From Patescibacteria group bacterium (GTDB lineage Bacteria; Patescibacteriota; Patescibacteriia; 2-01-FULL-39-33): a stretch of 32,000 bases of DNA. Made by a program: the position numbers and the translations under genes. The notes under the pieces were generated by a model that was not told where the DNA came from, made no database searches, and saw only the letters and a program-made list of their open reading frames with translations. The DNA lies in contig JBAZRV010000001.1 in the NCBI GenBank assembly GCA_041662745.1, positions 90,001 to 122,000 on the forward strand. Reading direction: 5' to 3'. The first letter of the stretch is position 1; every line of letters starts with the position of its first letter. Below, one piece after another: positions 2,127 to 29,917 of the stretch.

Positions 2127-2132
2127 ATGATT

Positions 2133-3554: not shown

Positions 3555-3563
3555 AAATTAATT

Positions 3564-4583: not shown

Positions 4584-4608
4584 AGTATTTAATGGATTAC
4601 TGATTGTT

Positions 4609-7293: not shown

Positions 7294-7314
7294 AATTAAG
7301 CGGGTAAGGAGAGT
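7285..7314. repeat. 30-bp direct repeat, copy 2 (overlaps the authentic tRNA-Gly 3' end)
   Basis: Identical to 7074-7103. Confidence 0.9.
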
Positions 7315-7370
7315 CGAACTCCTGTCACGAGTTTGGAAAACTCGGATAATAACCGTTATATGATACCCGC
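7299..7370 (-). tRNA. tRNA-Gly (anticodon UCC), CCA not encoded
   Basis: The reverse complement GCGGGTATCATATAACGGTTATTATCCGAGTTTTCCAAACTCGTGACAGGAGTTCGACTCTCCTTACCCGCT folds as a tRNA. Acceptor stem GCGGGTA/TACCCGC, anticodon stem CGAGT/ACTCG with loop TTTCCAA, T-arm AGGAG-TTCGACT-CTCCT, discriminator U. Confidence 0.88.
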
Positions 7371-10120: not shown

Positions 10121-10164
<44 letters not shown>

Positions 10165-10198
10165 TGGCGAACAGCCAAACCCTTGGGAGCTTCTCCAC

Positions 10199-10231
<33 letters not shown>

Positions 10232-10770
10232 GAACCTGGTCGTCGATATGGACTCTTGGACCAGACTAGCCTGTTATCCCCGGAGTAGCTTTTATCCGAT
10301 GAGCTTCCACCATCCTACATTGAATGGTCGGATCACTAAATTCTACTTTCGTAACTGCTCGACTTGCAGGTCTCGCAGTAAAGCTGGCTTGTGCTTTTGC
10401 GCTATCACTCCGATTTCCATCCGGAGCTAGCCAACCTTTGTAAACGCCTCCGTTACATTTTGGGAGGCAACCGCCCCAGTTAAACTACCCACCATACACT
10501 GTCCCTCTCCCGGATTACGGGAGGAAGTTAGAATTATAATATAACAAGGGTGGTATTTCACTGGCGCCCGAAGGCTCCCACCTATTCTAAACATATTAGA
10601 TCACAATTCAGTGCAAAGTTGTAGTAAAGCTTCACGGGGTCTTTTCGTCTAACCACGGGTAGGAGGCATCTTCACCTCCCTTGCAATTTCGCTGAGTACT
10701 TCGCTGAGACAGTTGTCAAGTCGTTATGCCATTCGTGCGGGACGGAACTTACCCGTCAAGGAATTTCGCT

Positions 10771-11461
10771 TCAAGTTTCCTTTCTTGGGACTCTATCTTC
10801 ATCCCGATGGGATGCTTAGCGTTTGGTCTCTGAGGATTCTAAAAATCGAGCTGGTAATCGACGGTTCATTTGTTCAATGATCCCGGCGATTTGTATTTTT
10901 CCCTTCTCCTTAAGATGTTTTCCTTGCTTTATCAACTTTATTATCTTGATAAATTTTTTGAAATCATCCGCCTTGGCTGTTTGCAGCCGGCGAGCAGAGA
11001 AAAATGGGATTATGACTTCGGATAAATCACTGATTGATCTTACGCAATACCGATAAAGATTCTCTTGATGGTTATCTTTACGGCGGTTGATATAAATCTT
11101 GCCGCAGCGAAAAAATTTTTGTATTTTTTCTAGTGCTTTAAGACTTTTTTCTCCCTGCGTAATCACAAATTCAGGAAAAATCTGCCAGCCTGATTTGGTA
11201 GTGTGATTTTTGATGATACTGACTGAAAAACAGCCCTCACCATCAGTAAATCCGACTATCCAATGCTCGAATTTCAGCCTTTCCTGCTGATTGATCGACA
11301 TAAATTAAGTTATTTTCTATGGTATAATTTTACCATAGTTTTGTCGATTTTCCCAGCATATGGCTAAGTATTTTGGACCATTCTTATATTGCTATAAGAA
11401 GAGGCAGCGTTAATAGATAACGGTCCCAGTCCTTTTGCATCCGAATTATTTCCGATGCAAA
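10771..11461 (-). mobile_element. intervening sequence 2 in 23S domain IV (691 nt, boundaries +/-2 nt) carrying a LAGLIDADG ORF
   Basis: It interrupts GGTCCTAAGGT|AGCGAAATTCC, just 3' of helix 69. The upstream exon ends in U. With the simplest boundary the insert ends in A rather than G, so the intron class or exact boundary is uncertain. Confidence 0.72.
10816..11301 (-). CDS. LAGLIDADG homing endonuclease (single-motif class), intron-encoded
   Basis: 161-aa protein. WIVGFTDGEGCFSVSI is a LAGLIDADG motif, followed by FPEFVITQGEKSLKALEKIQKFFRCGKIYIN. It is clearly a paralogue of the 9466-10017 protein. Confidence 0.9.
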   Translation of the reverse strand: MSINQQERLKFEHWIVGFTDGEGCFSVSIIKNHTTKSGWQIFPEFVITQGEKSLKALEKIQKFFRCGKIYINRRKDNHQENLYRYCVRSISDLSEVIIPFFSARRLQTAKADDFKKFIKIIKLIKQGKHLKEKGKIQIAGIIEQMNRRLPARFLESSETKR

Positions 11462-12293
11462 ACCTTAGGACCGTTATAGTTACGGCCGGCGTTCATCTGC
11501 GCTTCGATTCAAAGCTGCCCCGGTAAACCGGTTGACCTCTCCTCTTAACGTTCAGACACTGGCCAGGCATCAGCCCCTATACATCAGCTTGCGCTTTAGC
11601 AGGGACCTAAGTTTTTGGTAAACAGTCGCTTGACATCTTTAGCTGCGCCCCAAATAAATTTGGGGAGGCCTTATCCCTAAGTTACGGCCGATTTTTTGCC
11701 GAGTTCCTTAGCGAAGTTTCTCTCATACACCTGAGGCTACTCGCCTCATCCACCTGTGTCGGTTTAAGTACGGTTGCCTTGATCTTAACCCTAGAAGTTT
11801 TTCATGGCACTCGGTTTAATATAATTGAGTCCGCCTTGCGGCTTCCTCTGCTGCCGTATTCGTTGCTTAATGACCGGCGGATTTGCCTGCCGATCACAAC
11901 TACTAACGTCATCGTCATAGCCATAGGACGATATATCTCCCCTGATGCGTCACTCCTTCGGAAAATCAAGCCAGCGCAGGAATATTAACCTGCTCATCCA
12001 TCGGCTACGCCTTTCGGCCTCGTCTTAGGACCGGCTAACCCTGGGTCGATTCTCGTTGCCCAGGAAACCTCGGATTTACGGTGTCTAGAATTTTCATCTA
12101 GATTCTTGCTACTTATGCCAACATTCTTACTTCCTAGCAGTCCACCGCGCCTCACAGCTACGGCTTCGTTCCGCTAAGAACACTCCTCTACCACTCTATA
12201 TAAATATAGAATTCGCAATTTCGGTACTATGTTTAGCCCCGATACATTTTCGGCGCAAGAAAACTTGACCAGTGAGCTATTACGCTATCTTTA

Positions 12294-12324
<31 letters not shown>

Positions 12325-13921
12325 TTGTCGCGGTCTTGATACCACCTTTTACACTTAACATAGATTTAGGGACCTTAATTGGCGATCTGGGCTGTTTCCC
12401 TTTTGACTGATGGACCTTAGCGCCCATAGTCTGACTTCCGAAATAAAGATTACCGGTATTCGGAGTTTGATTGAAGACAGTAACCTTGCGGACCTGTCCT
12501 CATTCAGTGCTCTACCCCCGGGTCTATTTTCGAAGCTAGCCCTGAAGCTATTTCGAGGAGAACCAGCTATCACGAAGTTCGATTGGAATTTCTCCGCTAT
12601 CCACAGCTCATCCCCAAGTGTTGTACAGCTTGTGGGTTCGGGCCTTCCCAGACTGTTACATCTGGTTCACCCTGGCCATGGATAGATCACCTCGTTTCGG
12701 GTCTTATCCGCGCTACAATTGTTCGGACTATTAATCCTCGCTTTCACTGTGCCTTCTCCCCGAAGGGATTAAGCAAGCAACGCAGAATAAACTCGTTGGC
12801 TCATTCTTCAATAGGAACGCCGTCATCCAGAATTCGTATTGCTACGACCTTGGACTCCGACTCGTTTGTAAGCAAATGGTTTCAGATACTATTTCATCGC
12901 CCTAACCGGGCTGCTTTTCACCTTTCCCTCACGGTACTTGTTCGCTATCGATCATCAAAAGTATTTAGCCTTGCCATATAGTCATGGCGGATTCCTACAA
13001 GATTTCACGAGTCCTGTAGTACTTTAGATTATAACGACGGAAGTACGATTCTTTTCGCGTACGGGGCTTTCACCCGCTCTGGCCGGCTGTTCCAAAACCG
13101 TTCCGCTAAAAATTTTATTCCGCTCGGATACAAGTGCAATCCGCTGGTTATAATCATCACCCCAAAGCAGCAACGGGCACTCCTTTATGCCGACGCTACG
13201 CTTTCCCCTTGCGGGAAAAGTTTCACACCGGCAACACTGCTAAGGTTTAGGCTGCTCCGCTTTCGCTCGCCACTACTCGCGGAATGCAATCCATAGATCC
13301 GTGTCCTGCTTACGCAGAAAACGGAACTAAGGATTCAATTTTTTCTTTTCCTCCAGCTACTGAGATGTTTCACTTCGCTGGGTTTGCGTTTGTAACCTAT
13401 GAATTCAGTTACAAATGACGCGGGTTTGCCGCGCCGGGTTTCCCCATTCGGATATCTCCGGATCAAAGGTTGCTTGCCACCTCCCCGAAGCTTTTCGCAG
13501 GCTGCTACGTCCTTCATCGCCTTTTGATGTCTAGGCATCCACCATTCGCCCTTAATGTTTAATCGCAAGAATCTGGATAACTTATAAAAAAGAAAATTGC
13601 CTTATTCTGTCATTCCCGAAAATTTGCAGTGAGTTTTCGACTAATGTCGAAACGAACCAAAATTTATCGGGAATCCAGCATTAAGAATTTCCTCTTGTAA
13701 GAGTTTTTCCTTATTCTGTATTTTATTACTAAAATACTAAAAGTATGTACTCATTAATAATTGCAATTCGCTGCCACGCCCATAAATTTGGCGCGGCATT
13801 AAATTACCCATTTCTTTACTATGCACTATTCAGTTGTCAATGTTCCCAGGTTCAGGATATTTGACATTAACTTCCGCAATTTGAGCGATAAATTTCTTTA
13901 TCAGTCGGATCCGAAAGCTAA

Positions 13922-14556: not shown

Positions 14557-15414
14557 ATGAATACTCTGCTCAGCCTTTGTCTCTGGCACTCTTTGTACAT
14601 CGGCATATTGGCCGCCGCACTATCGCTTTTTACTATCTCAATCATTCCGACTATAATCTTGGTCAATGGCATCAAACAACGCCGTAATAGCCGCTACAAT
14701 TTCAAAATTACCTGGTTTCCGCCTCAGTGGTTAATGAGCTGTTTTTATATGTTGGATTATGTGATGGATGTTATCTATCATAAAATCAAAAAACTGCCTG
14801 TACCGCCCTGGCAAGAATACAGGAATTCAAAATATACCATTGACTTTTTTATTGAAAAAACGGTTGGGGAGGATGGGATTATTGGCGGATTGATTTCTAC
14901 ACTTTTCGGCAGTTTAGTGCTTGCAATAATTAATGGCGCGGTTGTCTGCCTGATTTTGGGATTGGCCAGCCTGTTGCTTTTCCTGTGGTGGCTAACATTG
15001 CCGATCATCATTATCTGTCTCGCCTTCCTATTCCTTTATCGCAAGTATCGCGAGTACCAGTCGGCCCTGGAGAGGCAACGGAAAGACAATGGGGATTTGC
15101 GAGCAATCATTGAGGAATTCAGAAAGGGTTATGACGACATAAAAGTGTGGTTGCAACAAAGCAACCCGGCCGATCAAGAAATTCATGAGCAACCTGAGGC
15201 GGTGAAAAGCGACCCGGCTGACCGGACTGCTGCCGGCGCCGAAGATGCTACCGCTCTTGCCGGTGACACCGCGAAACAGCCTGCCACGGAACAGGCCGTT
15301 GACAAATCGGAAAAAAAACCGACGGACGGCCCGAAGACGGACGGTCCGAAGAAGACGCGAAAGCCACGACGGAAAACTTCCCAAAAGCCGGATGACGCCG
15401 GCTCCGATACCTAA
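14557..15414 (+). CDS. membrane protein (about 4 TM) with a disordered basic/acidic C-terminal tail, hypothetical
   Basis: 285-aa protein with SD AGGAAAGGA upstream. TM helices lie at about residues 10-40 and 110-165. The C-terminal 90 aa are rich in P, A, D, K and T (..KKPTDGPKTDGPKKTRKPRRK..). It has its own promoter and terminator. Confidence 0.65.
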   Translation: MNTLLSLCLWHSLYIGILAAALSLFTISIIPTIILVNGIKQRRNSRYNFKITWFPPQWLMSCFYMLDYVMDVIYHKIKKLPVPPWQEYRNSKYTIDFFIEKTVGEDGIIGGLISTLFGSLVLAIINGAVVCLILGLASLLLFLWWLTLPIIIICLAFLFLYRKYREYQSALERQRKDNGDLRAIIEEFRKGYDDIKVWLQQSNPADQEIHEQPEAVKSDPADRTAAGAEDATALAGDTAKQPATEQAVDKSEKKPTDGPKTDGPKKTRKPRRKTSQKPDDAGSDT

Positions 15415-15431
15415 ACAATCAGCACCTTACG

Positions 15432-15576: not shown

Positions 15577-15605
15577 TTGACAAATATTATTTTTTTTGCT
15601 AAGAT
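15577..15605 (+). promoter_or_regulatory. promoter of the AAA+ operon
   Basis: TTGACA-17 nt-TAAGAT. It lies inside the 5' extension of the track ORF 15577-17103, which argues that the real start is downstream. It predicts a 5' UTR of about 180 nt. Confidence 0.55.
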
Positions 15606-15792
15606 AAGCAATCGCTTTAGGCCGATAATTCGGCGTAAAGGTGCGGACTTTGACAACTTAATAGCTTTAAAAATAAGGAGGAAAAGTGAATTAGGTAACA
15701 CCAAGATACGCGATGTATTATTGGCGATTAAACCCTTAAAAACATCAAAGTTGCGCCGCTTAGCGGGTCAGCGACAACAAGGAGCTGTGATC

Positions 15793-17103
15793 ATGGCGAC
15801 GGAACAAACGGACAGTGGCAACTTTTTGAACAGCATGTTGCAGAATCTTGATACTGCCAGCCAAAAATTGGAACAAAGACCGGCAGCGACCAATTTGGGC
15901 TTTGACATCAACGCCTTACTTGGCGATATGCGGCAAGGCCTGGAAACAGCCGTCAAAGACAAGAGACCGATTTTCTCCCTGGACATCAAAAGCCGTTTAC
16001 AGACGGCCGACTGGGAGCAAGTCCGTGTCAACTTAGTCAAAGAAAAGATGGATTTGGCCGGCATGATGGCCAATCTCAATATCGTACTGGAAGGGCTGGG
16101 GGCCGAGGTGATTCAACTCAAAGAGATGACACCCAAAGAAAAGGTCTCCCTGGAACAGGCCGGCGAAAGAATCAAAGAAGCCGAGCTTGCTTTGGCCAAG
16201 GCGGAAACAAAACGCTTGTTCCGCAAGAGCGCCACTCTCAAGGCTCAGGCCGGCTTAGCGTCCGCCAAACAACTGGAAGTGGCGACTAAGGAACGCATTA
16301 ACAGAGCGATGCGTGATCGGATTAATAATGCAACGATTGAAGATAGCCTGACAGCCTACAAACTGGCTTGCGACCGGCTCTTAAAAGCCATGCAGGCGCG
16401 CGCTCAATCTCAGAAAAAGCAATTGGAGCAAGACAAGTCGCAGAAACGGCTGGCGTTTGAAACGCACGCGCAAGCGACCGAGGCCTGCGAAAAGATTGAA
16501 CAACAAATCAATGCGCTCAAGGGCGAGTTGGCCGAAGCCGAGCAAACCCTAATAACGATGGACAAGTCCGATAAGGGCTTTGCCAAACAGGACCAAAAAA
16601 CTTCCGATTTGAAACAAACATTGAATGCCTTGCAGGGCAAGTACAACATTTGCATGGCAATCGCTCAGGAAGCGCAGAACTTTGCGCATCAATTGGATCT
16701 TCATGTCCAGACGATTAATGACCTTTTGACCATCAACCTCACCTGGCAAGCCATGATCACTAAGCAGGTGGAATACCGCCAAACAACGGTGCGTTCCTGG
16801 CTGGAAGCCACCAAGTCCCATCAGGATTTGGCGTCGGCCGAAGAATTGAACCGAGCCGGTCGCGGAGTTGATGCCAGGAGCATGGCCAGTATGGCGGAAA
16901 TCAGAGCCGCAGCGCAGAAAGCGCTAGTCAAAGCGCTTCAAGAGATTCCGGAGTGGCTCAGGCTCTACCATGAAATCATGGCGGCTTCCAACCAACAAGA
17001 CCGGCAATTTCGCGGTGACGTAGAGGAGCAAATCAAGCTGTTTCAAAAAAATTACGGTTTTGATCTGAAAAAAGAGTCATTCTTCGGAGATAATGAGAAA
17101 TAA
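15793..17103 (+). CDS. long coiled-coil protein (436 aa), family unknown
   Basis: I place the start at the ATG at 15793, preceded by AAGGAG 8 nt upstream (the track start at 15577 is the TTG of the -35 hexamer). The sequence is dominated by A/Q/K/E/L heptad-like stretches (e.g. KEAELALAKAETKRLFRKSATLKAQAGLASAKQLEVATKERINRAMRDRI; QLEQDKSQKRLAFETHAQATEACEKIEQQINALKGELAEAEQTL). It ends in ...KKESFFGDNEK. No TM segment or enzymatic motif seen. Confidence 0.7.
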   Translation: MATEQTDSGNFLNSMLQNLDTASQKLEQRPAATNLGFDINALLGDMRQGLETAVKDKRPIFSLDIKSRLQTADWEQVRVNLVKEKMDLAGMMANLNIVLEGLGAEVIQLKEMTPKEKVSLEQAGERIKEAELALAKAETKRLFRKSATLKAQAGLASAKQLEVATKERINRAMRDRINNATIEDSLTAYKLACDRLLKAMQARAQSQKKQLEQDKSQKRLAFETHAQATEACEKIEQQINALKGELAEAEQTLITMDKSDKGFAKQDQKTSDLKQTLNALQGKYNICMAIAQEAQNFAHQLDLHVQTINDLLTINLTWQAMITKQVEYRQTTVRSWLEATKSHQDLASAEELNRAGRGVDARSMASMAEIRAAAQKALVKALQEIPEWLRLYHEIMAASNQQDRQFRGDVEEQIKLFQKNYGFDLKKESFFGDNEK

Positions 17104-17117
17104 ATAACACACGCAAC

Positions 17118-17153
17118 GGAGGAGATCCTTAATCTTGGATCTCCTCCTTTTTC
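17118..17153 (+). terminator. strong intra-operon hairpin plus T-tract (attenuator or partial terminator)
   Basis: GGAGGAGATCC-TTAATCTT-GGATCTCCTCC followed by TTTTTCTTT. It sits 15 nt after the coiled-coil gene stop and 36 nt before the next ATG. Confidence 0.65.
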
Positions 17154-17188
17154 TTTCACTACGGCTAATCGCCATGAAAGGAGTTGTT

Positions 17189-18421
17189 ATGGGAGGACTA
17201 TCATTTTTTGGCCAGGGATTAAGCACGGTTGACATTACCCCCTCTGACTTAAGACGATCTGCTGACGAGCTTAACAGATTAGTCGGTGAGGATTTTACCA
17301 ACGGCGGCAGCATGGATTTTGCTTTGCTGGAGGATACCGACGAATACGTCAAATATTTCGCTCAGCAACTCCGGGTAATAAAAATCCTGCTGTCCTGGTG
17401 CCATAAAATCGGCAACGATGCCGGCAACCAAACCGGCATCATTATTGATTTTCTAAAACGTTTTTCTTACACCCTGGAATGCCTGCGGATGAAATACGTC
17501 CACAATAACCAGCATCGCCTGCGGGTGGACTTGACCGAATCCGGCTTCCCCAATTTTATTGAGCCGGATAATTTGAGAATTGATCTTCTGCAACGCGACG
17601 AACGATTGGCCAGTTTGCCCGGATCGGATCGCCTGAAAAAGTCAGCGCTGGAATATATGTTCAGCCATCTGGCCGAAGCCGAGGATATTTTGGCGATTTT
17701 GGGCGAACGATCTTATTTTTCCATGCTGACGGAAGACAAGTTGTTCCTGCCGTTTACGGCCGGAGAACTGGCAATCTTGAAGTCAGACAACCCTAAAGCG
17801 CGTTATTACAGTTTCGCTTGGGCTTGTTTTGACTTTGCCACTAACCGTCCCTATTTATATCTGATGCATTTTGCATACGATAATGATTGCGAACCGCTGG
17901 AAGAACGCGGCCAGAACTGGAAAGAATTCCGGCACATCATCACCAATGTCGGCTCGCGGGCTCCCCAGCTCGGCATCCTGGCTTTGGACATTGATGATCG
18001 CTTGGCTAACGTTCATCCTAAGGCCGTCAGGCGCATCAGTTTGGGCCCGCTATATTCCAAGTTCCTTTGCAATAACCCGTCAGCAACCGCTGACAAGTGG
18101 CAGGAGGCTTGGTGTCGGATTATGACGGAATTCAGTCGGAAGGAAGACGATTTTGTCTTGTTGCTGACCGAAGAAGAAGTCATTTCCGAACGGCAAGAAG
18201 TTTATGGCCGACCCCTGCGTCGCAAAGTCCGGGAGATCTTTAAAATCAATGAACTCTCTATGGAATGTCTGAACCGGCAAGTTTCCGCAGTCAAGCATTA
18301 TTGCGTTTTGCCTCATTGTTTGTTGCAACAGGCCGTCAATGATCCCCAGCTTTGCGAGTTGGGCTTTGCCGGTTTTAAATGCGTAACCTTCAACGGGGAG
18401 GATTCAATTAATGGGAGATAA
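17189..18421 (+). CDS. hypothetical cytoplasmic protein (410 aa) with an N-terminal FFGQGL motif
   Basis: I place the start at the ATG at 17189, preceded by AAAGGAG 5 nt upstream (the track start at 17135 lies inside the terminator hairpin). The N-terminus MGGLSFFGQGLSTVDITPSDLRRSADELNRLVG matches the N-terminus of the 20448 protein. No known domain recognised. Its stop overlaps the AAA+ start by 11 nt. Confidence 0.7.
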   Translation: MGGLSFFGQGLSTVDITPSDLRRSADELNRLVGEDFTNGGSMDFALLEDTDEYVKYFAQQLRVIKILLSWCHKIGNDAGNQTGIIIDFLKRFSYTLECLRMKYVHNNQHRLRVDLTESGFPNFIEPDNLRIDLLQRDERLASLPGSDRLKKSALEYMFSHLAEAEDILAILGERSYFSMLTEDKLFLPFTAGELAILKSDNPKARYYSFAWACFDFATNRPYLYLMHFAYDNDCEPLEERGQNWKEFRHIITNVGSRAPQLGILALDIDDRLANVHPKAVRRISLGPLYSKFLCNNPSATADKWQEAWCRIMTEFSRKEDDFVLLLTEEEVISERQEVYGRPLRRKVREIFKINELSMECLNRQVSAVKHYCVLPHCLLQQAVNDPQLCELGFAGFKCVTFNGEDSINGR

Positions 18422-20363
18422 AAACGGCTCATGCGTGCCGATTACGGCAGAGCAACTCAAGCCTTTTGATGTTTTTGCCGGCAAATTGATACAAAGCGCC
18501 GGTTGGCAACCCAAAAAGCCGCTAACGGCGCCTTCAGCCGACGGCGGATTAAAATTTAGCGAATCAATGCCGATGGAAGAAAGAATCAATTGGCTGGAAC
18601 TCATTAAACAGTACAACCCCAACGGAATCATTAATTCCGCCAACGTCAACCAACTGCTCAATTCCTTGTACACGGGAATCGGCATCGGCTGTTACGTAGT
18701 GGAAATGTATGCTAAAAGTTCGGGATTGGCCAAATTGCTTGATGACAATTCGCGTCAACGGCTGAATGAAGGACAAAAAGCGGAATTTTCCAAAAAGCTG
18801 GCAACGGCTGCGGCCGTCGCCCAGTTCAGCTTCGCTTCCTTCGTCTCTTGGTCATTGTCGCGTTACCAAGGCGAAAAACTTGATTCCCTGTCTATGGATT
18901 TTCCCGGTTATCCGGAAATCTGCTTGACTGACTACTTGCGCGGTTTCAACTGCCTGTTAGTCTACATGGGAAAGTTCGTCAAAGAATCGGGAAAAATCAG
19001 AACTGATCTGGATCTTCTGAAGGCCGTCCAAGTGGCGGCTCAGGGAGCGCTGGACGAAATCAAACTGCGTCGCGACTCGTTGGAATACACCCAATTCTTC
19101 ACCGATGTGGCGTACAAGCTGGAAGGCGAAGATTTTACTATTTCCGGTTTTGAAAACAGATTAAACAACGGCACGATTGGCGTGGAGTTTAAGCGGGTTG
19201 ACATCAAAACCATTGTCGGCAATCGCGATGCCAAGCGTTTTTTCCAACGATTGGCTGTACGCGCGGCTTGCTATAAAGTGGCGGAGAGACGCAACGTCAT
19301 GTACGATTTAGGGGGTATGCCGGCCGCCAGCATCGGCTTTGGCATTCCCGGTACGGGTAAAACCATGATGATTGGCGCTTTTTCCACGATGCTTTACGAT
19401 CTCTGTAAGTGGCTGGAATTGCCCTATGTATTTGATCCTCATCCTCCCAATATCGTTTCTACCTACCAAGGCGGATCCAGAGAACGGGCCGAGGAGTGGT
19501 GGCAACGCATCTTGAATCCCAATAGGATTTCCTTCGGTCCGGCCGATGATGCTGAAGTTAATTATGAAGACAGGACCCGCCCAGGCGTGTCTGCCGGCGT
19601 CCGTGAAGTTATCGGCGCGGCTCTAACCAACCTGGAAGGGGCCTCAGCTATTTGGCGAGGCAACGCCGTAGTATTTTTTCTAACCAATATCCCCGATCAA
19701 CTGGATCCGGCTTTGCTGTCGCGCATTGTAACCCGTTTCAAAATTGATGGGGCTACCACCTGGCAGGATTTCCTGGACCAGGACCACTTATGGTGGAAAC
19801 GCATTGCCGAAATCGATCCTGCTTTCATTGCCATGGCCGATCCTGACGATTACGAATACTTGTTTGCTCAACGCCTGATCGGCAGCATGGCCGAGACTTA
19901 CATAGGCTATCAGCAACCAAGGGAACGGGTCATTCTGGATATTTTCAACCGCGTGAATAAAGAACGCGACATAAAGGAACAAAAGTTTTTTGCTCAACTC
20001 TATCAAGAAATCCAAAAACAATTTCCCAAATTCAGTTCGCGCGATGTCCGTAATATCCAACGGGCCGTTGACGATCGGTTGTTAGACTTTGATTTTCCTG
20101 AGGCCTGGATGTCCGATCCGGAAATATTTTTCCGTCAGCCTTACGACCGGCAAAAAATCATGGTGTTGGAATTAATGCGAGAGAATATGCAAGGAAAATC
20201 GTTCGCGGAAATCAGATTCCAAGAGGCGATGCGCTATCTGGACAATATGGTGGCGATTGTTGACCTGGGCCATCGTCGCGAAGTGGAACGAGCAAGCGAA
20301 CAAATGATGATCCAAGCGGAAGCCAGCCGGGCAATCCAAAGCCGATTGGAACCGCGCAAATAA
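18411..20363 (+). CDS. AAA+ ATPase, classical-AAA-like module with unknown N- and C-terminal domains (650 aa)
   Basis: SD GGGGAGGA upstream. Motifs: N-linker VDIKTIVGNRDAKRFF; Walker A GIPGTGKT (19341-19364); pore-loop-like TYQGGS; sensor-1/SRH FFLTNIPDQLDPALLSRIVTRFKIDG (compare ATNRPDxLDPALLRPGRFD of FtsH/Cdc48/Vps4-type AAA). The Walker B region reads RISFGPADDAEV, which is non-canonical. Confidence 0.85.
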   Translation: MGDKNGSCVPITAEQLKPFDVFAGKLIQSAGWQPKKPLTAPSADGGLKFSESMPMEERINWLELIKQYNPNGIINSANVNQLLNSLYTGIGIGCYVVEMYAKSSGLAKLLDDNSRQRLNEGQKAEFSKKLATAAAVAQFSFASFVSWSLSRYQGEKLDSLSMDFPGYPEICLTDYLRGFNCLLVYMGKFVKESGKIRTDLDLLKAVQVAAQGALDEIKLRRDSLEYTQFFTDVAYKLEGEDFTISGFENRLNNGTIGVEFKRVDIKTIVGNRDAKRFFQRLAVRAACYKVAERRNVMYDLGGMPAASIGFGIPGTGKTMMIGAFSTMLYDLCKWLELPYVFDPHPPNIVSTYQGGSRERAEEWWQRILNPNRISFGPADDAEVNYEDRTRPGVSAGVREVIGAALTNLEGASAIWRGNAVVFFLTNIPDQLDPALLSRIVTRFKIDGATTWQDFLDQDHLWWKRIAEIDPAFIAMADPDDYEYLFAQRLIGSMAETYIGYQQPRERVILDIFNRVNKERDIKEQKFFAQLYQEIQKQFPKFSSRDVRNIQRAVDDRLLDFDFPEAWMSDPEIFFRQPYDRQKIMVLELMRENMQGKSFAEIRFQEAMRYLDNMVAIVDLGHRREVERASEQMMIQAEASRAIQSRLEPRK

Positions 20364-20376
20364 GGCCTCTCCCAAT

Positions 20377-20410
20377 GGAGGGGGTTACGGTAAAAAACCT
20401 AACCCCCTCC
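20377..20410 (+). other. intercistronic 11-bp stem-loop without a T-tract
   Basis: GGAGGGGGTTA-(12 nt)-TAACCCCCTCC starts 14 nt after the AAA+ stop and is followed by AAAATG rather than a U-run. It may be an mRNA stability or processing element. Confidence 0.55.
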
Positions 20411-20447
20411 AAAATGCTGGTGGGGCTAAACTGAGGAAAGGACGAAG

Positions 20448-21752
20448 ATGGATAAACTACTTGCCGATGCCGGATTATTCGGTCAGGGCTTGACCCTGAT
20501 AGATACGCCGCAACTTGTAGAAAGATACAACGATTGCCTTAAACGATTGGGCCTTCCCCCGACTCAACTAACGTCATTTTCCATTGACGGCATCGGTTGG
20601 TCGCCGGAAATAGCCCAGGAAACTGGCAATCCGCTGTATCTGTCGCATGGCGTGGCTAATCAACTGGCGATAATCATTTCGCCCGATCAAGAACATAAGC
20701 CGATTTACTTTCCCTTCAGTTCGTTTGATCGTTCGCTCCTGGCGGAGTTCTTCAAAAAATTCCGTCAAGCTATTACGGATATCACTACGACTTCCGGCAT
20801 AGCCCTGGATATTGATCAAGAACTGACGTCTTATGAAACGATCTTGGATTTGCTCTTAGTGGAGAACATCACGGTTATAAGTTATTGCGATAATTTGATC
20901 CAGGCGGCTCAACGTCAAAGAGAGCTGACGGAAAGATTCCTTGCCCCGGGCGACAACTGGGCCGACAGGGAATTGGCCCGGCAAATTATCGCCAGCGCTC
21001 AACAGTATGGCAATTTGCGGTACCGTACGGTAGAAATACCGGAATGGCGCTACGATAATCTGGGCTGTTTTTATAGCCGGGCGCTGGACGGCGTGTTTAT
21101 ATTCCGCAATCTGCCCGGCGGCGACTTTATGGTCGTTGAGAACGGCAAATTGGCCAGAAAGAACCGAGCGACGCAAATTGACATTTTTCAATTGACTGAC
21201 AAGCGTTTAATAGATCGTTTGGAAGAGGCCGGACTAATCGCTGTTGATCTCTCCTGGTATCGGGATCATCCCGAAATTTTGGAAGAAAAACGCGATTGTC
21301 TGCTGATTGACATTCTTTCTGCCGCTGATCCCGAAATTGATTATCTGCATTTGACTGAACCGCAAAAAAAATCGCGCTTAAGAAATCTCGGTGTCAAGCT
21401 TCCCAAAATTTACAAGGATCTGGAACGGCTGATCAAACGATTGGGGCAGGATGAGGTTGAAAGTTTTAATGAACTATCAGATGAACTTAAACTTTTGCTC
21501 CTGCAACCGCACCCGGATCTGGAAGAAGAAATGTGGGAATTGGTCGGCATGCTGATTGCGCGCTTGCAACCCTGGCGGTTGCTTATCACGTTTATCTGCG
21601 ATAAGAATCTGTTCTATAAACGCTATGATGACTGGCCGAAAGGAAAACGGCTTTGGGCCATCGCTACGTTGAAAGAACATTACCGGCCCAAAATGAATAT
21701 TCTAAGAGAACGAGCCGCTGAAGCAGAATCAACTGAAGACCTGCAAAAATAA
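20448..21752 (+). CDS. hypothetical cytoplasmic protein (434 aa) with an N-terminal LFGQGL motif
   Basis: SD GAGGAAAGGA upstream. The N-terminus MDKLLADAGLFGQGLTLIDTPQLVERYNDCLKRLG matches the 17189 protein. The remainder is helical and acidic, with no recognised domain. Confidence 0.7.
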   Translation: MDKLLADAGLFGQGLTLIDTPQLVERYNDCLKRLGLPPTQLTSFSIDGIGWSPEIAQETGNPLYLSHGVANQLAIIISPDQEHKPIYFPFSSFDRSLLAEFFKKFRQAITDITTTSGIALDIDQELTSYETILDLLLVENITVISYCDNLIQAAQRQRELTERFLAPGDNWADRELARQIIASAQQYGNLRYRTVEIPEWRYDNLGCFYSRALDGVFIFRNLPGGDFMVVENGKLARKNRATQIDIFQLTDKRLIDRLEEAGLIAVDLSWYRDHPEILEEKRDCLLIDILSAADPEIDYLHLTEPQKKSRLRNLGVKLPKIYKDLERLIKRLGQDEVESFNELSDELKLLLLQPHPDLEEEMWELVGMLIARLQPWRLLITFICDKNLFYKRYDDWPKGKRLWAIATLKEHYRPKMNILRERAAEAESTEDLQK

Positions 21753-21798
21753 ATTTTAATCGCTATCACCCTGAAACCGCAAAACAAGGAGGACAATC

Positions 21799-22590
21799 AT
21801 GCTGATTTTCTTATCTTACGCTCTGTTGTTTACCGCTCTCGGAATTTTTTGGTTCGGCATTGACAAATACTTCGGAGTAGTCGTCTTCTCTTTCGTTTAC
21901 AACCTAACCCACAGCAAGCGTTTGCCGGCCGATCGGGTTTCCGGTTTCATCTTGGGCCGCAAAGCGCGAGGACGATTCTACTCGGCTTTGCTTCTGGGTT
22001 TCGTCAATTGGCGGTCATGCCTCTACTTTATGACGCATGGCCCCGTAGTCAACTCTTTCCTCTTGCTACTGGCTGTCGTTTTTACGATGGTCGGCTTCTA
22101 TTGCGGTCCTATGGTCATGCGACTGTTGGGCAGACGCGACCAACTGCTTAAACATCTGGACGTAATTGACCAGATTGAAGCCGGAGAAATCCAAGTCGGC
22201 GATGAAGCCAAAAAGAAGGCCAAAAGCTGGTGGAAAAATTTAAAGGGCGGTTTAGCTGATTGGAAAAGCGCTCTCAGGGATGCGATCAACGCAACCAAAA
22301 ATCCGGAACAAGCCGCGGTTATTGACACGGCTCCCGCGGAAACGGAAGAGATGCCGGCAACGGCAGCGACCGAGCTATCCGCCCTGCAACAAGAACTTGC
22401 CGGTGTACAGGCCAGCATTAATCTTATGGGCGAGCAGGCCAAAACCGCTCCATCAAACAGTAATGGCGATGAGGCGATTCAACCACCAAATGAAAACCAT
22501 TTGAAAAAAGCGAAAGCCTGTCTGGAAAAATTTTCCCGAGGCGAGGATCCCGGCCTGGGGGCGTCCGATTCCGACCTCAAAAATGAATAG
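21799..22590 (+). CDS. membrane protein (about 4 TM) with a charged helical/disordered C-terminal half, hypothetical
   Basis: 263-aa protein with SD AAGGAGG 6 nt upstream. TM helices lie in residues 1-110. The C-terminal 150 aa are K/E/A-rich (..AKKKAKSWWKNLKGGLADWKSALRDAINATK..) with an acidic end. Confidence 0.7.
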   Translation: MLIFLSYALLFTALGIFWFGIDKYFGVVVFSFVYNLTHSKRLPADRVSGFILGRKARGRFYSALLLGFVNWRSCLYFMTHGPVVNSFLLLLAVVFTMVGFYCGPMVMRLLGRRDQLLKHLDVIDQIEAGEIQVGDEAKKKAKSWWKNLKGGLADWKSALRDAINATKNPEQAAVIDTAPAETEEMPATAATELSALQQELAGVQASINLMGEQAKTAPSNSNGDEAIQPPNENHLKKAKACLEKFSRGEDPGLGASDSDLKNE

Positions 22591-22598
22591 GAGAAGGC

Positions 22599-24224
22599 AT
22601 GATGAGTGAAAAACAAGATAAGGGCGGTCGGCTATACTGGCTGTTCAAACACAGCGCCGGCTGGGCGCTGAATTTTGCCAAACGCCACTGGCTGATTTTT
22701 ACCATCCTCCTGTTGGCAACTTGTCTGGAACTGTTTATCGCCCGAGGTTATGTGTACGGGTATATTATCACTGTCAGGAAATTCTTCGGTTCTTTTTTGG
22801 CAATAATTTCAGCCCTAGGCGTTTTCCGTTGGCTATACCGCAAATACCGTTGGCGCGGAAAACTATTGCTGGTAATCTTCTATTTGCTTGTTAGTTATGG
22901 CATTTATGAAGTCGGCAAACCGATTCATCATTACTTTGCGCAGTTTTACTGCTACAAAATAACTGATTTCGTAGAGCTGGATCAATTGCCGGAAACGGCC
23001 CATGAGCGGATCTTGCCGCTCAACTCCGTTTTCTCGCAAGCGCGGGAATTGGTGCAGGACAATGTCCAACCGGCCGAACCCCACTTCGTACGAATTGACG
23101 ACCAATACCGTTTCACTATGGGCATTGAACCCACTCCGCTTCTGCCCCGTATTTTTTCCGGAATCCGTCAAGTTTATAATATTGACGGCGCCTCCCCGTC
23201 GCCTGATTGGGGTTTGCAAAATCTGGTTGATGTCAGATTTGAAACCGGAGAAGGACTTAAGTGGAGCAGGAACACTTACATTGCCACCAGTCGCGCCTTC
23301 GGATTGTGGCGCTATTTCAACTATGAGCCGGACGGCGTTATCTACCTTAAAGACGACTCCGGAAAAATGGTGCAAGCGGTGCCACTGATCCGTTGGAAAG
23401 GGTTATTGTTTCCCCGGCCAACTTTTGGCGGCGTGCAAGTAATTGAACAATCGCCGGACGGCATCTGGCAAAGCCTCAGGCGAGTCCTGTTCGGCTGCGG
23501 TTATTATGTCTCGCCGGCCAAAATGAAAAACTATCCGTTCTTAAACGGACAGAACGTTCTATCTTACAAGGTGTCTCGTTATGTCGCTGAAAGCTTCAAA
23601 TTCCATAAAGGGCTTTCTGCTCCTCTGCCTTGGATCCATCGAGGCGATGTCAGAATCGCCAATATGCCCGAGGATATGAACGACCAACCATTCACTATCT
23701 TTTTCCGTCTGGGACAACTTGGCGGTAAAGATGCTCTTTATCACTACTTCTCACTTCAACCCTACTCGGAAAAATCGCAAGGGTTATCCGTTTCCCTGTT
23801 CGTGCCGGCTGATGGCCTGGGAAAAATATTTATCTTCTCTCATCACCAGAAAGAACCGATGCTGGGAGTGACCGCCGTAACCAATAAAGTCATCGGCGAT
23901 CATAAGTTTTTTGACTGGACAATCAATCGGCCGGTTGAACAACGGCCCTACATCACCAAAGTAAACGGCAAGATCCGCTTTTACTGGCTGACGACCGTCG
24001 TTACCCTGGACAATAAGGACGCCAAACATTATATTGCCGGCAGTCGTCCCGACGTAATCTTGACCGACGCGGCCAATCAATGCGTTTATTGGATGGAGTC
24101 AGCTGACTCCAGTGCTTGGAAAAAGCAACTGGAAGCGAATGTCAGTTTCAAGCCAGTTATGGGAGGACCGCCTCAAGCAGAAAAAGTGGAACCGGCGACG
24201 ATCCAGCCGATTTCCGCAGAATAA
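22599..24224 (+). CDS. membrane-anchored protein (about 3-4 N-terminal TM helices) with a ~420-aa probably extracytoplasmic domain, hypothetical
   Basis: 541-aa protein with SD AGGAGAAGG upstream; the start is ATG 22599 or 22602. TM helices lie in residues ~30-115. The rest is a W/Y/F/P/G-rich sequence that looks beta-rich, with no recognised motif. Confidence 0.7.
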   Translation: MMSEKQDKGGRLYWLFKHSAGWALNFAKRHWLIFTILLLATCLELFIARGYVYGYIITVRKFFGSFLAIISALGVFRWLYRKYRWRGKLLLVIFYLLVSYGIYEVGKPIHHYFAQFYCYKITDFVELDQLPETAHERILPLNSVFSQARELVQDNVQPAEPHFVRIDDQYRFTMGIEPTPLLPRIFSGIRQVYNIDGASPSPDWGLQNLVDVRFETGEGLKWSRNTYIATSRAFGLWRYFNYEPDGVIYLKDDSGKMVQAVPLIRWKGLLFPRPTFGGVQVIEQSPDGIWQSLRRVLFGCGYYVSPAKMKNYPFLNGQNVLSYKVSRYVAESFKFHKGLSAPLPWIHRGDVRIANMPEDMNDQPFTIFFRLGQLGGKDALYHYFSLQPYSEKSQGLSVSLFVPADGLGKIFIFSHHQKEPMLGVTAVTNKVIGDHKFFDWTINRPVEQRPYITKVNGKIRFYWLTTVVTLDNKDAKHYIAGSRPDVILTDAANQCVYWMESADSSAWKKQLEANVSFKPVMGGPPQAEKVEPATIQPISAE

Positions 24225-24300
24225 CAGTTAATCAAAAACATTTTTAACAAAAAAACAGACGAAACCGCCAAGAGCGACTCGTCATCAAAGGAGAACCATC

Positions 24301-24498
24301 ATGTTGGTTGCTGTCACTATTTTGATTATCGGTCTGTTCGTTGGGTACAAATTCAAGGTAGCGGAAAAATATCTGATGCCGTTCTGGCGCAATGTGATCA
24401 AGCCCTTCATTGTAACCAAGGTCAAGCCCTTCATCACGACGAAGGTCCTGCCGGCATTGGCAAGGCTCGTCAATGCCCCCGTGAACCGGCAACAATAA
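24301..24498 (+). CDS. small single-TM basic protein (65 aa) with an internal KPFI(V/T)TKV repeat
   Basis: SD AAAGGAG 7 nt upstream. It has an N-terminal TM helix (LVAVTILIIGLFVGY), then ..VIKPFIVTKVKPFITTKVLPAL... It is the last gene before the operon terminator. Confidence 0.6.
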   Translation: MLVAVTILIIGLFVGYKFKVAEKYLMPFWRNVIKPFIVTKVKPFITTKVLPALARLVNAPVNRQQ

Positions 24499-24514
24499 TA
24501 AGTACTTTCTCATT

Positions 24515-24546
24515 CCGTTCCGACGTTTTCGTCGGAACGGTTTTAT
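24515..24546 (+). terminator. rho-independent terminator of the AAA+ operon
   Basis: CCGTTCCGACG-TTTT-CGTCGGAACGG followed by TTTTAT. Confidence 0.8.
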
Positions 24547-24554
24547 ATTTGATC

Positions 24555-24597: not shown

Positions 24598-25173
24598 TCA
24601 ATCATTAACCTTAAGCATTTGTTCCATTAAATTAATAAATACTTTGGCATTAACTTCCACATCGGGCATGGCGCGATGGGCATTACGATTCTCATGTCCG
24701 AAGTGACGGGCCACGGCTGTCAGATTATACTGCGGCAAAGACAGCAGTTTGCGAGACAATTCCAAAGTGTCAATCATCTTATTCTGCGGCGCGCTTAAAG
24801 CATGGCGCTGGACATGAGATAGGACAAACAGCCAATCAAAGTCTTTAATATTGTGGCCAACCATAATAGAATCACCGGCGAAAGACAAAAATTCAGCCAG
24901 CACCTGGCTGCCGGGACGGCCATTAACCAATAAATATATCTCATTTAGGCCGTTAATTTTCTCCACTTCCGGCGCAATCGGACGCGTGGGGCGGATCAAG
25001 GCCTCAAAACGAGCCAGCTCCTCACCGCCACGCAAACGAATGCCGGCGATTTCCAGAATTTCATCGCGCGCCGGATCCAGGCCGGAAGTTTCCAAATCAA
25101 AAACCGTAAATTCCGTCTTGAGAAAGCTCCGGTATTTCTCTTTCAGTTGTTCCGCTGTCATGTTGTTTGCCAT
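24598..25173 (-). CDS. DnaQ-like 3'-5' exonuclease (DEDDh, DNA polymerase III epsilon/PolC-exonuclease family)
   Basis: 191-aa protein. Exo I is VFDLETSGL, Exo II is VGHNIKDFDWLF, and Exo III is HRAMPDVEVNAKVF (H-x4-D). Confidence 0.85.
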   Translation of the reverse strand: MANNMTAEQLKEKYRSFLKTEFTVFDLETSGLDPARDEILEIAGIRLRGGEELARFEALIRPTRPIAPEVEKINGLNEIYLLVNGRPGSQVLAEFLSFAGDSIMVGHNIKDFDWLFVLSHVQRHALSAPQNKMIDTLELSRKLLSLPQYNLTAVARHFGHENRNAHRAMPDVEVNAKVFINLMEQMLKVND

Positions 25174-25564: not shown

Positions 25565-26809
25565 TTAAAATAATTCTTTTTGCTCGGCCGGAGACCGGGT
25601 ATTTTTTATCTTTATCCTGCCGAAGATGCCGTCATAACCGGCGGCGATTTCCACTTGGCCCTGACGCATGGCGATTATGGCCTCGGTGATTTCCGGCAGG
25701 GTGATCTTATTCAATTCTGCCGAAGATGCGTCCAATAATATGGCGAATTCATTGGCATGACTGATCAAATTAAAATATTCTTTCCGGACTTTTTTGGAAT
25801 TTTTCCCCACCCCCGAGACGGCAGCGATTATTTCTTGCAAAGGAACTAAATTTTTGTAAGGGATAAAATCATCGATTGCGATTTCTTGCCGATCGGCCAA
25901 GGAGTTGACCCGATTAAGAACGCCCAGAGTAAGCGGTTTGCCGCACTTCGGGCATCTATTGTCCAGTTGCCGGCTTTTCTCCGGCTCGCAAGAAAAACCG
26001 CACACGGCGTGACCGTCAATATGATACTTTCCTTCCTCGGGAAAAAATTCTACTGTCATTAAAAACCTTTTGCGATCTTTTTCTTTTATTATTCTTCTCA
26101 GCTCCTGATAAGAAAATTTATTTTCACTAAAATCAAAAACATTAGCTTCGCGTCCGAGATTGGCCGGTGAATGCGCGTCGGAATTGGAAAGCAGAGTTAA
26201 CCGATCCAATTTTGACAAACGCCAATTCATCGCCGGATCGGAAGATAGGCCCGTTTCCAACGCAAAAATTTTCGGCGTCAATTCTTCAAAACATTCTTCC
26301 AGCGAATCAAAGCCGGATTTTGATCCGAACACGGCAAACCATGGCGTCCAAATATGCGCGGGAAAGACAATAATATTTTCATCAACCGCAAAAGCCAGGC
26401 GTGCCAATTCTTTGGCTGGTAGGCCGATAATCGGCCGGCCGTCTGATTTTAGGTTGCAACCGCGATTAATTAACTCTTGAATCAGCTTTTCCGCCGCCTC
26501 AATTGACGGCAAAAGCAAGCAGGTATGGATGCGCCGGCATTTTCCGCCTTGAGTATAGATACAGCTGATTTCTCCGCCCAAAACAAACCTAACCGCGGAA
26601 GAACCGTCCTTAAGCTGAAAAAATCCCGGTTCCGCCGAAATCAATTCTTCTTTAATTGATTTAAACCAGGCCGGATGAGTAAAATCACCGGTAGCAACTA
26701 AGTCGATGCCCTTATGCTCGCACCATTTGGCAATATTGGGCAAGGTCAATTCCCGGCTGCAGCCGCGGGAATATTTTGAGTGGATGTGTAAATCAGCAAT
26801 GACTTTCAT
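25565..26809 (-). CDS. PHP-domain nuclease, endonuclease Q (EndoQ)-like
   Basis: 414-aa protein. The N-terminal PHP signature is ADLHIHSKYSRGCS...LVATGDFTHPAWF, with later HIW, SNSDAHS and Y-H-I-D-G-H metal-ligand-like motifs. It has a Cys4 cluster (C-G-F-S-C ... C-P-K-C) followed by LTLGVLNRV. This PHP plus Zn-finger layout is as I remember EndoQ. Confidence 0.55.
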   Translation of the reverse strand: MKVIADLHIHSKYSRGCSRELTLPNIAKWCEHKGIDLVATGDFTHPAWFKSIKEELISAEPGFFQLKDGSSAVRFVLGGEISCIYTQGGKCRRIHTCLLLPSIEAAEKLIQELINRGCNLKSDGRPIIGLPAKELARLAFAVDENIIVFPAHIWTPWFAVFGSKSGFDSLEECFEELTPKIFALETGLSSDPAMNWRLSKLDRLTLLSNSDAHSPANLGREANVFDFSENKFSYQELRRIIKEKDRKRFLMTVEFFPEEGKYHIDGHAVCGFSCEPEKSRQLDNRCPKCGKPLTLGVLNRVNSLADRQEIAIDDFIPYKNLVPLQEIIAAVSGVGKNSKKVRKEYFNLISHANEFAILLDASSAELNKITLPEITEAIIAMRQGQVEIAAGYDGIFGRIKIKNTRSPAEQKELF

Positions 26810-29837: not shown

Positions 29838-29908
29838 CGGGGTGGAGTATGTCGGTAGTACGCGCCCATGGGGTGGGTGTAGACGGGGTTCAATTCCCCG
29901 CACCCCGA
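29838..29908 (+). tRNA. tRNA-Pro (anticodon GGG), CCA not encoded
   Basis: CGGGGTG-GA-GTAT-GTCGGTA-GTAC-G-CGCCC-ATGGGGT-GGGTG-TAGA-CGGGG-TTCAATT-CCCCG-CACCCCG-A. All four stems pair (one G-U in the anticodon stem and one in the D stem). The anticodon loop is identical to E. coli proL. Confidence 0.85.
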
Positions 29909-29917
29909 CATTATTAA

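Follow-up and report, generated by a model that had tools for sequence, protein, structure and literature searches.

Several described systems resemble, in one part or another, the locus that is the subject of this work. The unfoldases of the Rpt/PAN, Cdc48/p97/VAT and Pex1/6 groups are classical AAA+ ATPases with a Walker A motif, a sensor-1 TN, arginines of the second region of homology (SRH) and an aromatic residue in the pore loop, and Cdc48 acts with the pair Ufd1-Npl4. In the ESCRT-III/Vps4 (CdvB/CdvC) and PspA/Vipp1 systems a helical polymer former stands beside a classical AAA+ ATPase at a membrane, TelA/KlaB loci (KlaABC; XpaC-YaaN) pair a soluble helical protein of ~370-400 residues with a small membrane protein, and the type VII secretion system (T7SS) brings together, in EccA/EccB, a classical AAA+ ATPase free of transmembrane segments, membrane proteins whose external domain is large, and elongated helical proteins. 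Here we describe a set of six genes, G1-G6 (15793-24224), that is built around an AAA+ ATPase, G3, and lies in a window of 32,000 nucleotides from the metagenome-assembled genome of a Patescibacteria group bacterium (contig JBAZRV010000001.1, positions 90,001 to 122,000 of the forward strand; all window coordinates are counted from its first letter). G0 denotes the open reading frame (ORF) upstream of the set and G7 the last small ORF downstream of it, and all eight are on the same (+) strand. An earlier note, made from the letters of this DNA alone, had proposed that the locus encodes a membrane-associated machine of a kind not yet described.

When G3 is set against the classical unfoldases, it is alike in all four motifs and shares with Cdc48 the presence of two dedicated soluble partners, which here flank it, but it differs in its single AAA module, in N- and C-terminal regions without a match, in an [FY]-Q-G pore loop and in the acidic sequence D-D-x-E. 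Its partners are unrelated to any cofactor that is known, nor is a gene for a protease, a ubiquitin-like protein or the proteasome associated with it. The likeness to ESCRT-III/Vps4 and PspA/Vipp1 is one of logic, in which G1 would be the polymer former, and G1 has a conserved motif at its extreme C-terminus, as ESCRT-III proteins have their MIT-interacting motif (MIM); however, ESCRT-III and PspA proteins are about 220-260 residues long whereas the G1 family spans 360-480 residues, four further conserved genes have no counterpart in ESCRT or Psp, and no MIT domain was detected in G3. G1 is similar to TelA/KlaB in length and helicity, although TelA loci are without an AAA+ ATPase, DUF6638 or a G6-like protein. 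Unlike the T7SS, the locus is without FtsK/SpoIIIE, WXG100, mycosin or EccD-like proteins and matches no Ecc or Ess family, and to our knowledge a T7SS is not expected in diderm phyla or in Patescibacteria, where this system occurs. There is no match to a known kind of system at the level of the whole; apart from a generic AAA+ core and a domain of unknown function (DUF), none of its parts can be recognised. No component beyond the AAA module fits a characterised system, in line with the earlier note, whose author knew of no system with this gene set.

Conservation and distribution of the gene set

To follow the cluster in other genomes, 84 loci were compared, made up of the 80 best and four from an exact look-up. 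Over these loci, BLAST with the window proteins recovered G3 in all 84, G2 and G4 in 80 each, G1 in 75, directly upstream, and G6 in 73; one additional G1 (locus L018) was recognised by hhalign only. The recovered genes always follow the order G1-G2-G3-G4-(G5)-G6 on one strand, and the complete order G1-G2-G3-G4-G5-G6 is present in about 70 of the 84 loci, in several phyla. The same order is found in Patescibacteria, Bacteroidota, Verrucomicrobiota, Desulfobacterota and Gammaproteobacteria, with G1-G4 only in Deinococcota; the carriers include, among Patescibacteria, members of the Buchanan-, Falkow-, Morani-, Sungii-, Lloyd- and Saccharibacteria, and further Chitinophagales, Saprospiraceae, many Flavobacteriaceae genera, Trueperaceae, Desulfuromonadales, Desulfobacterales, gammaproteobacterial metagenome-assembled genomes (MAGs), Opitutaceae and Verrucomicrobiales. 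In a scan of one genome per species, which gives a lower bound, relatives of G3 were present in at least 590 species genomes, and its full-length homologs share 38-60% identity across many phyla.

This co-occurrence is decisively beyond chance. The genes occur side by side in many genomes that are not related to one another, and the chance juxtaposition that the earlier note had named as the alternative is ruled out. We have practically no doubt that the six genes make up a system that is real, conserved and functionally linked and that has not been described before. Our literature search on DUF2333, on Patescibacteria and on AAA+ systems of this kind found nothing relevant and no paper that describes it, and a transposon-sequencing (Tn-seq) paper on Saccharibacteria leaves such an ATPase unmentioned.

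The conserved set is smaller than the seven- or eight-gene system that had been proposed. G0 is, as claimed, a membrane ORF closed by its own terminator, which a terminator scan places at 15431, but it is lineage-specific and not part of the system. Its homologs were found only in the Buchananbacteria relative L005 (1081-3097), as three tandem paralogs of a small lineage-specific family, and the only homolog of G7, with 78% identity, is in the same relative; both genes are therefore placed outside the conserved set.

The window G3 is as close to its homologs in Trueperaceae (45% identity) as to those in other Patescibacteria (39-45%), which argues for horizontal transfer. Within Flavobacteriaceae the chromosomal context is stable, with the cluster adjoining an ABC-F gene in 28 loci, and between phyla the flanking genes vary; no Pfam neighbour recurs across phyla among the 144 proteins in the flanks of 24 diverse loci, so the module is self-contained. 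A self-contained six-gene system that has spread horizontally is the best explanation of these observations.

The cluster also occurs in reduced and altered forms. Trueperaceae have G1-G4 only. Loci L018 and L019 (a Lloydbacteria MAG and bin KTt_0975) have only G1-G3-G5-G6; hhalign assigns the upstream proteins of 469-480 residues at these two loci to the G1 family with a probability of 100%, while G2 and G4 were detectable in neither. A more distant four-gene form, G1'-G2'-AAA-DUF6638, is found in Vibrio and Rhizobiaceae. In Vibrio it resides on megaplasmids, and in Sinorhizobium, Shinella and Rhizobium on large replicons that are classed as plasmids by PLSDB. The ATPase of this form has 26% identity to G3 over 89% of the length, its Sinorhizobium and Vibrio homologs score 41.8 and 50.1 bits against PF00004, and hhalign links the distant-form proteins to the window families with probabilities of 98.8-100% (98.8-98.9% for G1 and 99.8-99.9% for G2, in Vibrio and Sinorhizobium). 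A ChvI-binding fragment lies inside Sinorhizobium meliloti SMc02733; that SMc02733 is the AAA gene is only a guess from gene order, and the observation was not used.

The four soluble genes stand alone at the Vibrio and Rhizobium leguminosarum loci. In Sinorhizobium and Shinella, the place of G5/G6 after the DUF6638 gene is taken by a gene for a DUF2333 membrane protein (L086 14058-15281; L095 10631-11779), with two N-terminal transmembrane segments, as read by eye, and a domain of ~330 residues; DUF2333 as a G6 homolog was rejected (hhalign probability 1.8%). Since L018 and L019 keep G1-G3-G5-G6 while Trueperaceae, Vibrio and Rhizobium keep G1-G4, G1 and G3 are the invariant pair of the system; G2 and G4 are the usual companions and the membrane partner is exchangeable. 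The membrane association that the earlier note had proposed would hold, through G5 and G6, in most lineages, but it is not universal, as the loci of Trueperaceae, Vibrio and R. leguminosarum carry the soluble genes only.

In 26 Flavobacteriaceae loci a gene for a NUDIX hydrolase (~200 residues, NudK_N plus NUDIX; e.g. L001 11955-12557) is inserted between G3 and G4. A NUDIX gene also adjoins a DUF2333 gene at a published Pseudomonas locus, which may be coincidence.

Properties of the six proteins

Scans of all eight proteins against Pfam, NCBIfam, PADLOC and PHROGs returned only AAA and DUF6638. G3 matches PF00004 with 26.2 bits (cut-off 21.2) over residues 310-445, and its closest solved relatives in a PDB profile search are Rpt4, Cdc48 D2, Pex6 and VAT (E about 4e-5 to 2e-3), which align with the core only, residues about 260-450. 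The conservation of its motifs was judged over 19 diverse homologs, among which the Walker A (G311-x-P313-G-T-G-K317-[ST]), the acidic box D379-D380-x-E382 (19545-19556) and the sensor-1 T425-N426 are invariant. The Walker B slot reads DD, with the Glu two residues later, and the position of the canonical Walker B Glu is therefore an Asp (D-D-x-E, not D-E). The pore-loop segment S-T-[FY]-Q-G-G-S is invariant as well; its aromatic residue aligns with the Tyr of Rpt4 K-Y-I-G, and the invariant Gln at a hydrophobic position is a variation. In the SRH-like stretch, where LD.A[LV][LI]SR...R aligns with TNRPD.LD.ALLR, S437-R438 shows no variation and the conservation of R442 is at least 90%. The N-terminal region of ~300 residues and the C-terminal region of ~200 residues are strongly conserved and family-specific, and neither found a match in the PDB profile search. 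From these motifs, G3 is a divergent AAA+ ATPase of the classical clade, its motifs intact apart from the variant Walker B, and appears to be of the protein-unfolding type, in agreement with the clade and the pore-loop aromatic that had been read from the window alone.

G1 shows a hydrophobic periodicity of 3.5 residues, the heptad repeat, over residues 1-63, 71-160 and 183-290 and not over 300-436. It contains only four prolines, and its matches in the PDB profile search are confined to keratin, tropomyosin and designed coiled coils, so that its coiled-coil character, already noted, is upheld. A conserved motif that contains YG[IF]D is located at the C-terminal end. G1 belongs to no Pfam family; 31 members of the G1 family gave no Pfam matches above noise, although a few of them have weak matches to Bacillus_HBL and T3SSipB that lie below threshold (E about 2e-3 to 8e-3). 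Two candidate relationships were rejected. The comparison with E. coli PspA gave an hhalign probability of 0.6%, and a relation to TelA, prompted by a resemblance to the TelA 'GFFKK' region, gave 0.4-1.2% against a set of seven plasmid TelA-family sequences, of which five are so annotated. Neither Snf7 nor PspA_IM30 nor TelA (PF05816) was found by Pfam in the 31 G1 members at E up to 0.1. The ESCRT/Vps4-like or TelA/PspA-like polymer that the earlier note had given as an example is thus not supported by the sequence profiles.

The two soluble companions of the ATPase, G2 and G4, had been described as two proteins with a common FGQGL motif, which turns out to be a local coincidence. The FFGQGL of G2 lies within an N-terminal extension of ~40 residues that the other family members, the nearest relative among them, do not have, and the GLFGxGL of G4 is only partly conserved; that G2 and G4 are paralogs was rejected (hhalign probability 0.7%). 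G2, for all its conservation, has no match in Pfam, NCBIfam, PADLOC, PHROGs or PDB profiles, and Pfam scans of all members of its family stayed at noise level. G4 is a member of PF20343 (DUF6638), which it matches with E 4.4e-40 and 138.3 bits (cut-off 27) over profile positions 5-399 of 439. The claim that only the AAA module has a recognisable domain therefore stands for G1, G2, G5 and G6 and falls for G4. An exhaustive HMMER search collected 593 clusters of the DUF6638 family at 50% identity, all about 400-450 residues long, and none of them carries a domain fusion that would serve as a functional clue; no paper that mentions DUF6638 came up in the literature search. This work assigns the family to a conserved AAA+ operon, in which its gene comes fourth.

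For G4 and G6, AlphaFold models were searched by Foldseek. The G4 model has a mean predicted local distance difference test (pLDDT) score of 94.2 and a predicted TM-score (pTM) of 0.89; its N-terminal half is alpha/beta and its C-terminal half helical. No fold match was found in the PDB (best E 1.9), nor did a profile search over all PDB sequences give one. The G6 model (pLDDT 90.3) comprises four long N-terminal helices followed by a beta-rich domain at residues 124-515. Against the PDB it found nothing significant (best E 1.5e-3, TM-score 0.14), and there was no match in the PDB profile search or in the family libraries. Across all the libraries searched, the G6 model has a single strong structural neighbour, the predicted viral structure A0A6G5YLZ4 of BFVD (588 residues), which is remote (E 1.5e-14, TM-score 0.58, 13% identity). 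G4 and G6 thus have high-confidence models without a solved relative and, as modelled, represent at least two new folds.

G6 is the best-conserved partner, with 33-40% identity to homologs in other phyla. By the positive-inside rule, its N-terminus is predicted to be inside and its large domain of ~420 residues outside. A stand-alone archaeal homolog of 537 residues is encoded on a Halocatena marina plasmid (L097 5335-6948; hhalign 98.5% over 390 columns), so the G6 family is wider than the operon. This homolog is annotated as an 'ABC transporter permease' without Pfam support, which is probably a misannotation. G5 is much less conserved: a weakly conserved equivalent of 175-210 residues directly precedes G6 in about 73 loci. 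In Flavobacteriaceae it is beyond the reach of BLAST and is represented by a membrane ORF of 175 residues, which forms one family in 50 loci and is always just before G6. No family for G5 exists in Pfam, NCBIfam, PADLOC or PHROGs; with about four transmembrane segments, it would by the same rule hold its charged tail on the cytoplasmic side.

Layout and transcription of the locus

An ORF listing of the window confirmed the eight same-strand ORFs, and the seven of the proposed operon agree with the earlier note in coordinates and sizes (Table 1). A GGAG-type Shine-Dalgarno site precedes every ORF, and the junctions from G1 to G7 are, as had been stated, short or overlapping (85, -11, 84, 46, 8 and 76 nucleotides), with an 11-nucleotide overlap of the G2 stop and the G3 start and a gap of 8 nucleotides between G5 and G6; ORF coordinates indicate similar near-abutting junctions at other loci. 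A hydropathy scan placed hydrophobic segments in G0, G5, G6 and G7 and none in G1-G4.

Both the promoter-like site and the strong terminator-like hairpin that had been said to bracket the operon were found. The bracketing by a single terminator does not hold, since a second strong hairpin, at 17118-17147 and followed by the T-run TTTTTCTTTC, lies inside the operon between G1 and G2. Only 41 nucleotides separate this hairpin from the start of G2, and a consensus scan of the window detected no promoter-like site between them; G2-G7 must therefore be transcribed by read-through from upstream. A stable hairpin with a T-run just after G1 is present in 25 of 74 loci, a rate similar to that after the last gene, G6 (20/73); after G3 and G4 the counts are 10/84 and 5/78. 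Its carriers include nearly all of the Patescibacteria loci examined and one gammaproteobacterial locus, and the stem sequences are unrelated. The independent recurrence of the element across loci suggests that G1 is made in excess over the rest of the operon, as would fit a structural or polymer-forming subunit.

Table 1. Genes and transcription signals of the locus in window coordinates.
Feature	Position	Strand	Description
G0	14557-15414	+	285-residue membrane protein, own transcription unit
Promoter-like site	15577-15605	+	TTGACA-17-TAAGAT, extended -10 TG; 10/12 consensus matches (consensus match only)
G1	15793-17103	+	436-residue soluble coiled-coil protein; constant partner of the ATPase
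Terminator-like hairpin after G1	17118-17157	+	11-bp stem with 7 GC, plus T-run; likely attenuator
G2	17189-18421	+	410-residue soluble protein of a family without annotation
G3	18411-20363	+	650-residue single-module classical-clade AAA+ ATPase
G4	20448-21752	+	434-residue DUF6638 protein
G5	21799-22590	+	263-residue membrane protein, about 4 transmembrane segments, long charged tail
G6	22599-24224	+	541-residue membrane protein, about 3 transmembrane segments and a ~420-residue beta-rich domain
G7	24301-24498	+	65-residue protein with a single transmembrane segment, lineage-specific
Intrinsic-terminator-like hairpin at operon end	24515-24550	+	11-bp stem with 8 GC, plus T-run; strong

Downstream of the operon, a DEDD/RNase T-type exonuclease gene (24598-25173, -) converges on the terminator. 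The Falkowbacteria locus has a gene for a 191-residue RNase T-type protein in the same downstream position and orientation, and the Buchananbacteria locus has an ORF of equal size and orientation. The next feature, at 25565-26809 (-), encodes a 414-residue protein with an N-terminal HxH-like motif and no Pfam match. Elsewhere in the window, a 23S rRNA gene (10088-13565, -) measures 3478 nucleotides against 2925 in the model and thus contains about 550 nucleotides of insertion; a LAGLIDADG homing endonuclease ORF of 161 residues lies inside it (10816-11301, -), and a second LAGLIDADG ORF of 183 residues (9466-10017, -) is located in an unusually long 23S-5S spacer of 1.1 kb. Introns in rRNA genes are typical of Patescibacteria. 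The region 831-5502 (-) contains surface-polysaccharide genes, for a Wzy_C O-antigen ligase-like protein, a Polysacc_synt flippase, a weakly GH42-like protein and an EamA transporter, and tRNA genes are found at 732-822 (tRNA-Ser), 7299-7370 (tRNA-Gly) and 29838-29909 (tRNA-Pro).

A proposed mechanism and its alternatives

In light of these data, the reading that we favour, and to which we give a probability of roughly 40%, is that the ATPase G3, with G2 and G4 as cofactors, acts on assemblies of G1 and remodels them at the membrane, where G5 and G6 form a complex. G3 would be a hexamer-type classical AAA+ ATPase that pulls on polypeptide by means of its central pore loop. G1 would be abundant and build an assembly or scaffold of coiled coils in the cytoplasm, and G3, helped by its two family-specific soluble cofactors, which are closely spaced with it and would be translationally coupled to it, would engage it, probably via the conserved aromatic motif at the C-terminus of G1, and use ATP to remodel or disassemble it. 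In the six-gene form this work would take place at a complex of G5, with four transmembrane segments and a cytoplasmic tail, and G6, with three transmembrane segments and a domain that faces outward, and ATP-driven work in the cytoplasm would thereby be coupled to the cell envelope. In this model we infer all of the protein-protein contacts, the choice of G1 as substrate, how G5 and G6 lie in the membrane, and the physiological role. A more far-reaching proposal is that the locus represents a new class of envelope-coupled AAA+ machine, in which a G1 polymer is assembled and disassembled by a dedicated unfoldase and two cofactors of novel fold on a membrane complex with an external domain of new fold. 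Ultra-small Patescibacteria and diderm phyla would share it, and its job would be membrane or envelope remodelling, repair or export, for which we know of no bacterial system composed in this way; we consider this less likely than not. The energy-dependent, membrane-proximal remodelling or translocation machine of the earlier note is plausible as a hypothesis for this uncharacterised conserved gene set, whereas its specific analogies are not retained.

Several observations weigh against the remodelling of G1 at the membrane. Versions of the cluster without an adjacent membrane gene exist, and the membrane link may therefore be secondary; G6 homologs also occur alone, as in Halocatena. No MIT or other adaptor domain was detected in the N-terminal region of G3 by Pfam, NCBIfam and PDB profiles, all of them sequence comparisons, and the DD(A)E arrangement of its Walker B may make the kinetics of hydrolysis unusual. 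The PspA and TelA comparisons detected no link between G1 and the polymers known to be remodelled by AAA proteins or the coiled coils of membrane stress, and that G1 polymerises and contacts any partner is something we infer.

Of the other explanations, an export apparatus comes first in our estimate, although we regard it as improbable: an AAA+ hexamer would sit on a G5/G6 channel and thread G1, or another substrate, across the membrane, with G2 and G4 as chaperones or targeting factors. The attenuator-like hairpin sets G1 apart, as is often the case with major secreted or structural subunits, and G1, which is elongated, helical and without a signal peptide, resembles many substrates of specialised secretion in these respects and has the sub-threshold matches to Bacillus_HBL and T3SSipB; in addition, G5 and G6 are tightly coupled membrane proteins, the latter with a large external domain, and the pore loop of G3 is of the threading type. 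However, those Pfam matches are at noise level, G1 has no hydrophobic segment, no more than three or four membrane helices are seen in the G6 model, with no pore apparent, none of the components is similar to a known channel or secretion ATPase, and the four-gene versions have no adjacent membrane component at all. The absence of a membrane gene from these versions also counts against a role in envelope sensing or mechanotransmission, to which we give somewhat less credit. Here hydrolysis by G3 would, as in FtsEX or MacB, cause a conformational change in the outer domain of G6, or envelope stress sensed by G6 would control the cytoplasmic module, with G1 as a scaffold. A cytoplasmic ATPase together with a membrane protein whose external domain is large and highly conserved would fit such a role, as would the substitution in Rhizobiaceae of DUF2333, a different membrane protein of similar layout, and the stable chromosomal context in Flavobacteriaceae is what would be expected of a housekeeping or envelope function. 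Mechanotransmission is, however, not known for classical-clade AAA+ ATPases, no periplasmic enzyme partner is encoded, and the conserved pore loop favours substrate threading.

That same stable and apparently vertical context, over many Flavobacteriaceae genera, speaks against an anti-phage or conflict system, for example one of abortive infection with a membrane effector that spreads horizontally, and we rate this lower again. It would account for the patchy distribution over distant phyla, with the transfer implied by the ATPase identities, for a multi-gene, ATPase-centred cassette that includes membrane proteins, and for the NUDIX hydrolase of the Flavobacteriaceae loci. Yet PADLOC-DB v2.0.0 gave no match for G1-G7 and one at noise level for G0 (E 0.018), systems described after 2023 being outside that scan, and the flanks of the 24 diverse loci carry no defence-island signal; among their PADLOC matches one type I methylase is clear and most others appear to be housekeeping look-alikes (DEDDh, DprA, LolE). 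Pfam and NCBIfam give no sign of a typical effector domain, be it a nuclease, a protease, an NADase or another. The cluster is also not associated with mobile elements, its plasmid matches being only on non-mobilisable megareplicons, and it is absent from phage collections: searches of IMG/VR for relatives of G3, G4 and G6, and of GenBank phages for relatives of G3 and G6, came back empty. The least probable of the four, and in our view very improbable, is a member of ESCRT-III/Vps4 or CdvBC, Psp, TelA/KlaABC or the T7SS that divergence has masked. A superficial parallel can be drawn, with a helical, coiled-coil protein beside a classical AAA+ ATPase and membrane proteins nearby, and G3 has a weak NCBIfam match to CdvC at residues 255-324 (E 0.037; cut-off 650 bits). 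On the other side, G1 is about twice the length of ESCRT-III and PspA proteins and its family has no Snf7, PspA_IM30 or TelA match, G4 and G6 have models without a PDB neighbour, and the domains typical of these systems are missing: in addition to the MIT domain, no FtsK/SpoIIIE ATPase or WXG100 protein was found among G0-G7 or as a recurrent member of the flanks of the 24 loci, G3 matches PF00004 and not Sigma54_activat, and the PspA, PspB and PspC families are unmatched by G1, G5 and G7.

The favoured reading, an ATPase that remodels G1 assemblies at a membrane complex, can be tested directly, since the module is present in genetically tractable hosts, namely Sinorhizobium, with the model symbiont S. 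meliloti, Vibrio, Tenacibaculum and Polaribacter. Patescibacteria genomes measure about 1 Mb, and several lineages have kept the 8.4-kb cluster despite this small size; among the other groups that keep it are marine Flavobacteriaceae. With four to five families that have no assigned function, at least two of them of new fold, this conserved ATP-driven system offers an entry into bacterial 'dark matter'. If a coiled-coil polymer and its disassemblase do act at the membrane, the system would be a bacterial counterpart of ESCRT-III/Vps4 in logic, not in ancestry, and such a polymer/disassemblase pair would give the Pfam family DUF6638 a role.

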